Source: Escherichia coli (GTDB lineage: Bacteria; Pseudomonadota; Gammaproteobacteria; Enterobacterales; Enterobacteriaceae). From it: 345 nt of DNA. Of the stretch, positions 1 to 345 are shown in pieces (the stretch's first letter is position 1; the number at the start of each line of letters is the position of its first letter). The stretch lies in the NCBI RefSeq assembly GCF_003334305.1, contig NZ_QOWS01000083.1. One strand, given 5' to 3'. Both the position numbers and the translations under genes were made by a program. Below the pieces are notes generated by a model. It saw only the letters and a program-made list of their open reading frames with translations, was not told where the DNA came from and ran no database searches.

Positions 1-183
1 TCACGCCTGAAGGGAAAGCTGCACGTTATCAGCAAGCGTTACACTCAGCGCATTGAGCGACATAATCTGAATCTGAGACAACATCTGGCAAGGCTGGGAC
101 GGAAGTTACTGTCGTTCTCAAAATCGGTGGAGTTGCATGACAAGGTCATCGGGCATTATCTGAACATAAAACACTATCAGTAA
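1..183 (+). CDS. insB: IS1 transposase InsB (InsAB' C-terminal part), 3' partial: last 60 codons plus stop
   Basis: Frame 1 is open from position 1 to TAA at 181-183. Manual translation: [60 protein letters not shown]. The ...[23 protein letters not shown] tail matches the IS1 InsB C-terminus as I recall it. The 5' end lies outside the window. Confidence 0.88.
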
Positions 184-198
184 GTTGGAGTCATTACC
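176..198 (+). repeat. IS1 terminal inverted repeat (about 23 bp), overlapping the insB stop codon
   Basis: ATCAGTAAGTTGGAGTCATTACC is the reverse complement of the IS1 end consensus GGTAATGACTCCAACTTA(T/C)TGAT. In IS1 the insB stop lies inside the terminal repeat (established knowledge). Exact repeat length is from memory. Confidence 0.75.
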
Positions 199-268
199 TC
201 CTCCCGAACTCAAAGCTATCATACAGATAATTACTGGTTAACCCTATATAGGGCATTTTAAAGTGTTG
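199..268. other. 70-bp AT-rich non-coding spacer between the IS1 end and the IS3 end; origin unidentified
   Basis: No ORF of meaningful length on either strand. Sequence TCCTCCCGAACTCAAAGCTATCATACAGATAATTACTGGTTAACCCTATATAGGGCATTTTAAAGTGTTG matches neither IS terminus as I recall them. Confidence 0.6.
236..253. repeat. Two overlapping perfect palindromes: GGTTAACC (236-243) and CCCTATATAGGG (242-253)
   Basis: Seen directly: GGTTAACC and CCCTATATAGGG each equal their own reverse complement. Function unknown; could be a protein-binding dyad or coincidental. Confidence 0.5.
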
Positions 269-307
269 TGATCTTACCCAGCAATAGTGGACACGCGGCT
301 AAGTGAG
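269..307 (+). repeat. IS3 left terminal inverted repeat (IRL), approximate extent
   Basis: IS3 has imperfect terminal inverted repeats of roughly 39-40 bp (established knowledge). The inner boundary cannot be confirmed without the right end, so the end coordinate is approximate. Confidence 0.55.
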
Positions 308-320
308 TAAACTCTCAGTC

Positions 321-328
321 AGAGGTGA
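321..328 (+). promoter_or_regulatory. Shine-Dalgarno / ribosome-binding site for IS3 orfA
   Basis: AGAGGTGA contains GAGG at 322-325, 8 nt upstream of the ATG at 334, which is suitable spacing. Confidence 0.55.
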
Positions 329-333
329 CTCAC

Positions 334-345
334 ATGACAAAAACA
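334..345 (+). CDS. insE: IS3 OrfA (transposase N-terminal DNA-binding subunit), 5' partial: first 4 codons only, M-T-K-T
   Basis: ATG ACA AAA ACA directly follows the SD. IS3 OrfA begins MTKT... as I recall, and the K-12 gene name for IS3 orfA is insE. Only 12 nt are inside the window, so the call rests on the IS3 context rather than on the ORF itself. Confidence 0.75.

Follow-up and report, generated by a model that had tools for sequence, protein, structure and literature searches.

The ferric-citrate (fec) iron-uptake island of Escherichia coli is bordered on its right by two insertion sequences (IS) separated by a short stretch of DNA, which raises the question of what the intervening DNA is, and whether it makes up, alone or together with the IS ends, a system of its own. 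The DNA analysed here is a 345-nt stretch, referred to in full as the window. A sequence-only reading of it had ascribed all but 70 bp to two well-characterised IS, and this partition proved exact: IS1F and IS3 account for everything except a spacer of precisely 70 bp (Table 1). The spacer is a relic of an arlC/ompTp-type omptin gene, and the window as a whole is very likely a non-functional scar in which an IS1F end, the omptin remnant and an IS3 end are joined at the right border of the fec island. The best explanation of its contents is that the only working parts are those of the IS, namely the terminal repeat of IS1 and the terminal repeat, leader and orfA start of IS3.

Table 1. Features of the 345-nt window, with the basis on which each was assigned.
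Feature	Positions	Strand	Basis
Right end of IS1F	1-198	+	Identity to the curated K-12 element
C-terminal 60 codons of insB and stop TAA (181-183)	1-183	+	Frame 1 translation gives the InsB C-terminus
IS1 right terminal inverted repeat, ATCAGTAAGTTGGAGTCATTACC	176-198	+	Agreement with the left end
20-codon ORF, MPYIGLTSNYLYDSFEFGRR; PGAP WP_113705808.1, 'hypothetical protein' in some genomes	194-256	-	ORF list
Spacer: internal 70-bp arlC/ompTp-type omptin relic, codons ~194-215 of 317; no start, stop inside IS1	199-268	-	Omptin alignment
IS3 left end: terminal inverted repeat, 5' leader, first four orfA codons	269-345	+	K-12 IS3A identity
Small hairpin in the IS3 leader, GUGAGU..CUCU / AGAG..ACUCAC	303-333	+	Inverted repeat and centroid folds

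The IS1 block matches the curated IS1F of E. coli K-12 MG1655 over the final 198 bp of that element without a mismatch (198/198), ending in ...TAAGTTGGAGTCATTACC, and the annotated end of the IS1F CDS falls at window position 183. When reverse-complemented (GGTAATGACTCCAACTTACTGAT), its right terminal repeat shares 20 of 23 positions with the left end, GGTAATGCTGCCAACTTACTGAT. In strain A7 (locus L001), a genome with a 100% match to the window, the element is a whole copy of 768 bp which differs from K-12 IS1F at two positions. PGAP labels this block 'IS1-like element IS1F family transposase' and treats it as a pseudogene with an internal stop; the K-12 insB7 is also annotated as a pseudogene, and IS1F is thus without an intact InsAB' transposase. 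Comparison of the A7 flanks revealed no 8-9 bp target-site duplication around IS1F (GGGGATTTC versus TCCTCCCGA). The missing duplication is due to a later rearrangement of the copy, and does not affect its family identity.

At the other side of the spacer, positions 272-345 are identical to K-12 IS3A, and the TGA at 269-271 completes a TGATC terminus that mirrors the right end of the element. The A7 copy of IS3 is 1,258 bp long with TGATC...GATCA termini, and its bases 4-1258 are 99.92% identical to K-12 IS3A. Its terminal inverted repeats are imperfect, with TG...CA ends (TGATCTTACCCA... and ...TGGGTAGGATCA), and 28 of their first 40 positions match. The orfA ATG lies at position 334, where a CDS annotated as 'IS3-like element IS3 family transposase, programmed frameshift' begins; orfA and orfB are annotated as a two-piece CDS with a programmed frameshift, of which the window contains just the start. 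K-12 IS3A (L007:1730-2984) is annotated at 1,255 bp, without the first three left-repeat bases (TGA) seen in the window copy. A 3-bp target-site duplication is absent from the A7 flanks of IS3 (TTG versus ATA), which is consistent with recombination between IS3 copies rather than with a fresh insertion. Since neither IS carries a target-site duplication, the borders of the spacer point to IS-mediated deletion or to recombination between IS copies, and not to simple insertions.

The spacer was aligned in register with an intact omptin gene located on an APEC ColV-type plasmid (L003), to which it is identical at 67 of 70 nucleotides. The termini of IS1 and IS3 mark the limits of this similarity, to within a single ambiguous base next to IS3. 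Translated from the minus strand, the fragment gives QHFKMPYIGLTSNYLYDSFEFG, and 20 of its 22 amino acids are identical to residues 194-215 of the 317-aa L003 omptin. The translated fragment furthermore matches the 'OmpT' structure 7xw0 of the PDB (E=6.7e-9). At profile positions 194-216 it also hits two NCBIfam models of omptin subfamilies, NF008224 (E=7e-8) and NF008222 (E=4e-7). The surviving part amounts to 22-24 codons (~7% of the gene) where a complete precursor has ~317 residues, and its omptin family score is 32 bits against a cut-off of 415. Lacking a start codon, a signal peptide and a complete barrel, the relic cannot make a protease.

About 760 plasmid records have the same 70 bp within a CDS annotated as 'omptin family outer membrane protease'. 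The intact gene resides in a mig-14 / SDR-oxidoreductase / omptin cluster. When the whole omptin region was employed as a BLAST query, a piece of ~72 bp was all that it matched in A7, in ATCC 11775 (L002) and in an IncFIB plasmid (L004); no match was found at the K-12 locus, nor any further omptin DNA beyond IS3 or IS1 at the chromosomal loci. The plasmid omptin arlC (ompTp) has been described as ~74% identical to OmpT and as part of the plasmid pathogenicity island PI-6 (PMC6854850), and the intact plasmid omptin found here corresponds to this gene of PI-6.

In every chromosomal locus read, the left flank consists of fecEDCBA-fecR-fecI, followed by ykiE and then IS1F, while the right flank of the junction is a variable, IS-riddled island. 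The fec island has been placed in the KpLE2 phage-like element, with IS elements around it (PMC3032704, PMC5379014), and IS911 and IS1 are reported to surround the fec operon within KpLE2 (PMC5379014). No published description of the IS1F-omptin relic-IS3 border was found in the literature that we retrieved. Among complete E. coli genomes, 2,066 of 5,426 (~38%) carry the full IS1-relic-IS3 junction if a match must cover 80% or more of the window, a threshold that is out of reach for either IS alone; a search with only the spacer finds it in 2,534 of the 5,426, and BL21 is one of the strains that have the spacer. Another 29 records with the junction are plasmids, some of them from Salmonella (94% identity).

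The sequence-only reading had expected any interest to lie in the flanks and had proposed annotating them. This annotation bears out the expectation: to the left stand fecIRABCDE and ykiE, to the right the variable island with possible cargo genes, and in the window itself the tests reveal no new system. The small-protein gene ykiE, annotated with 22 codons, separates fecI from IS1F at all fec loci examined, K-12 included (L001:7330-7398, L002:7328-7396, L005:10373-10441), just outside the window and upstream of IS1F. The sigma factor required for fec expression is encoded by fecI. In strain A7 this gene is annotated as frameshifted (L001:6671-7193), and the adjacent fec operon may therefore be silent in that strain. 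On the right-hand side, the IS3 of the mastitis strain ECC-1470 (L006) is followed by a dGTP triphosphohydrolase-family gene, a gene for a 189-aa hypothetical protein and then an H-NS-family gene (L006:7495-9397). These genes may represent cargo carried by the variable island, with a possible link to phage defence. Further to the right in ATCC 11775, genes for two zinc-ribbon proteins and an inovirus Gp2-family protein beside an IS66 element (L002:14055-15707) are putative mobile-element cargo.

The junction is not uniform across genomes. Most copies carry a decayed IS3 relic, exemplified by ATCC 11775 and the IncFIB plasmid, in which the orfA ATG is changed to AAG and which shows a 1-bp deletion, many substitutions and an internal deletion of ~900 bp; over its first 238 bp this relic is more than 10% diverged. 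The form seen in the window, with a canonical IS3 from the first base, was found in 26 records at full coverage and at least 98.8% identity among the top-ranked matches to the query L001:8150-8750, after which identity drops to a class at 91%; as IS3 alone makes up 80% of that query, a count at 80% coverage or more is inflated by unrelated IS3 copies. The IS3 of ECC-1470 (L006:6120-7380, compared with L001:8269-9526) is a mosaic: its first ~66 bp are canonical, 51 differences, including the AAG and the 1-bp deletion of the relic, fall at IS3 positions ~67-370, and just two more occur over the following ~900 bp. Such a mosaic speaks directly for recombination or gene conversion among copies of IS3. 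Finally, in the ST131 locus (L008:4001-4276), 68 of the 70 spacer bases are left, in direct contact with another fragment of the IS3 family that lies on the minus strand; the IS3 relic present in ATCC 11775 has been deleted here together with the ariR-like gene.

The spacer and IS1F are identical between A7, ATCC 11775 and ECC-1470, and the right flank varies with the form of the junction, with Ag43 and GTPase genes in A7, a dGTPase-family gene in ECC-1470 and an ariR-like gene in ATCC 11775. On the IncFIB plasmid, IS1, the omptin relic, the IS3 relic and an ariR/ymgB-like gene (L004:4431-7142) lie beside evgS/evgA-like genes, and the module is bounded by a second, inverted IS1A copy that is ~90% identical to the first IS1. 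This layout resembles a composite transposon and could account for movement of the module between plasmids and chromosomes.

Taken together, the junction forms suggest a history for the window, which we propose as follows. An arlC-like omptin gene in the plasmid mig-14 / SDR-oxidoreductase / omptin cluster would have been broken by two elements, an IS3-like one on the 5' side and IS1 on the 3' side. The remainder of the omptin gene, along with the target-site duplications, would then have been lost through IS-mediated deletions or through recombination among IS copies, and the resulting IS1-relic-IS3 module would have travelled with the fec island and reached plasmids as well. In the rare lineage to which the window belongs, an active canonical IS3 would have replaced the old, decayed IS3 relic through homologous recombination, restoring the orfA ATG and bringing in a different right-hand flank. 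We have moderate confidence that the relic junction is the old one and that the canonical IS3 probably arrived later by homologous recombination with other IS3 copies. The opposite order, in which the canonical IS3 is ancestral and the relics derive from it, is unlikely, given how far the relic has diverged over its first 238 bp, next to a spacer and an IS1F that have remained identical. Since the right flanks also vary with the form, an order in which the relic came first is the most economical. No single-insertion intermediate, that is, an arlC-like gene with only IS1 or only IS3 at these coordinates, was found.

Among functional readings of the window, the one that survives best, while still being very improbable, is that the spacer and the IS3 leader (199-333) act as a regulatory RNA, or else as a hybrid promoter through which read-through from insB is coupled to expression of the IS3 transposase. 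The three pieces are co-oriented, such that transcription of insB would enter the IS3 leader, and the hairpin in this leader covers the ribosome-binding site of orfA: the Shine-Dalgarno-like GAGG (322-325) is base-paired within it, and it extends to the base preceding the ATG. As the hairpin lies wholly within IS3, however, it is part of every IS3 copy and no product of the junction; a putative role is that it damps or occludes the translation of read-through transcripts. Neither strand of the window has a match in Rfam at E<=10, and the fold energies are no better than those of shuffled sequences (z=-0.58 for 269-345, z=+0.42 for 199-345 and z=-1.17 for 185-345 on the minus strand). The value of -0.58 leaves the hairpin as an internal feature of IS3 and not as an independent structured RNA. 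Covariation is uninformative for 199-333 because the copies are 94-100% identical. A promoter and terminator scan found no terminator-like site in the window, nor any site of either kind in 199-333; its two weak promoter-like sites both lie inside IS1 (38-66 on the plus strand and 91-62 on the minus strand). Furthermore, the downstream orfA is dead in most genomes through its AAG start, frameshift or deletion, which leaves nothing to regulate.

A reading that is somewhat less probable again takes the 20-codon minus-strand ORF as a genuine small-protein gene born of the junction. PGAP does call this protein in some genomes and the DNA is found in more than 2,000 of them, yet its residues are those of an omptin β-barrel segment in the omptin frame, and its ATG is the internal Met of ...QHFKMPYIGL.... 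The stop codon TAA (window 196-194, minus strand) lies four bases inside the IS1 terminal repeat. Annotation of identical DNA varies, and in other genomes PGAP treats it as a truncated pseudogene ('incomplete; missing N-terminus'). No promoter-like site was found upstream of the ORF on the minus strand within the IS3 end, and linkage to the fec island accounts for the broad distribution. The call of WP_113705808.1 is hence an annotation artefact of the omptin relic. Just as improbable is the suggestion that the junction is active as a whole, with transcription of the omptin scrap from the IS ends and, as its product, either a micro-protein of 20 aa or a leader or antisense RNA modulating the IS3 transposase or fec/ykiE.

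Least probable of all, and scarcely credible, is an origin of the 70 bp from the chromosomal ompT of the DLP12 prophage, or a chance omptin resemblance: K-12 OmpT does match the translated fragment (PDB 1i78, E=3.5e-5, 16/22 identity), but of the two omptins compared, the arlC/ompTp type is much closer in both residues and E-value, the DNA is 95.7-98.5% identical to plasmid omptin genes with only five records in the 60-80% band, and agreement at 67 of 70 nucleotides by chance is not believable.

The earlier assertion that the window holds no novel system accordingly stands, with IS1F and IS3 as flanks and a 70-bp arlC/ompTp pseudogene relic as spacer. A structured RNA or small-protein gene in 199-333, which had been named as the finding that would overturn it, was sought with a negative outcome: Rfam was empty, the folds resembled shuffles, and the only ORF follows the omptin frame. 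It had also been stated that the window shows no sign of CRISPR repeats, tRNA-like structure or fragments of defence or toxin genes. The first two parts hold, since ARAGORN found no tRNA or tmRNA gene, Rfam gave no match, and the repeat search found no CRISPR or other repeat array, just two-copy matches of 8-25 nt with irregular spacing which, apart from the IS3 leader hairpin, are chance-like. One correction concerns the spacer, in which a gene fragment had gone unseen. The omptin outer-membrane protease is a virulence and antimicrobial-peptide-resistance gene, and is neither a toxin nor a phage-defence gene.

The biological weight of these observations is very small; the window is an example of a fec island border worn down and rearranged by IS elements. 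The DNA that PGAP annotates here as a 'hypothetical protein' or as a pseudogene in thousands of E. coli genomes can now carry the label of an arlC/ompTp omptin fragment, and the relic ties the chromosomal border of the fec island to the DNA of a plasmid virulence cluster. The three or four forms of the junction (canonical IS3, mosaic, deleted relic and relic lost) are possible lineage markers.

All three pieces are members of well-characterised and already known families, namely IS1F, IS3 and the arlC/ompTp omptins. The contents of the window do not make up a system, and the identity of the spacer is the sole addition. The K-12 IS1F, the copy near fecI in the KpLE2 phage-like element, shares the same 198 bp, likewise has a pseudogene insB frame and occupies the same position, directly downstream of fecI-ykiE; it differs in its right flank, which continues directly into yjhU in K-12, and into the omptin relic and IS3 in the window. 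The IS3 of the window resembles the K-12 copies IS3A-E (insE/insF) in its 99.92% identity, its TG...CA ends and its orfA/orfB frameshift, and departs from them in lacking the 3-bp target duplication and in its site, where most other genomes have a decayed IS3-like relic. In comparison with the arlC/ompTp genes of ColV-type, AIEC and ExPEC plasmids, the relic is alike at the nucleotide and amino acid level over codons 194-215, and differs from the intact gene in keeping only 7% of it. Finally, the locus conforms to the IS-bounded fec island of the literature, with IS elements on either side of fecIRABCDE; what follows past IS1F, the omptin relic and IS3, is a further detail of its border and not a new kind of element.
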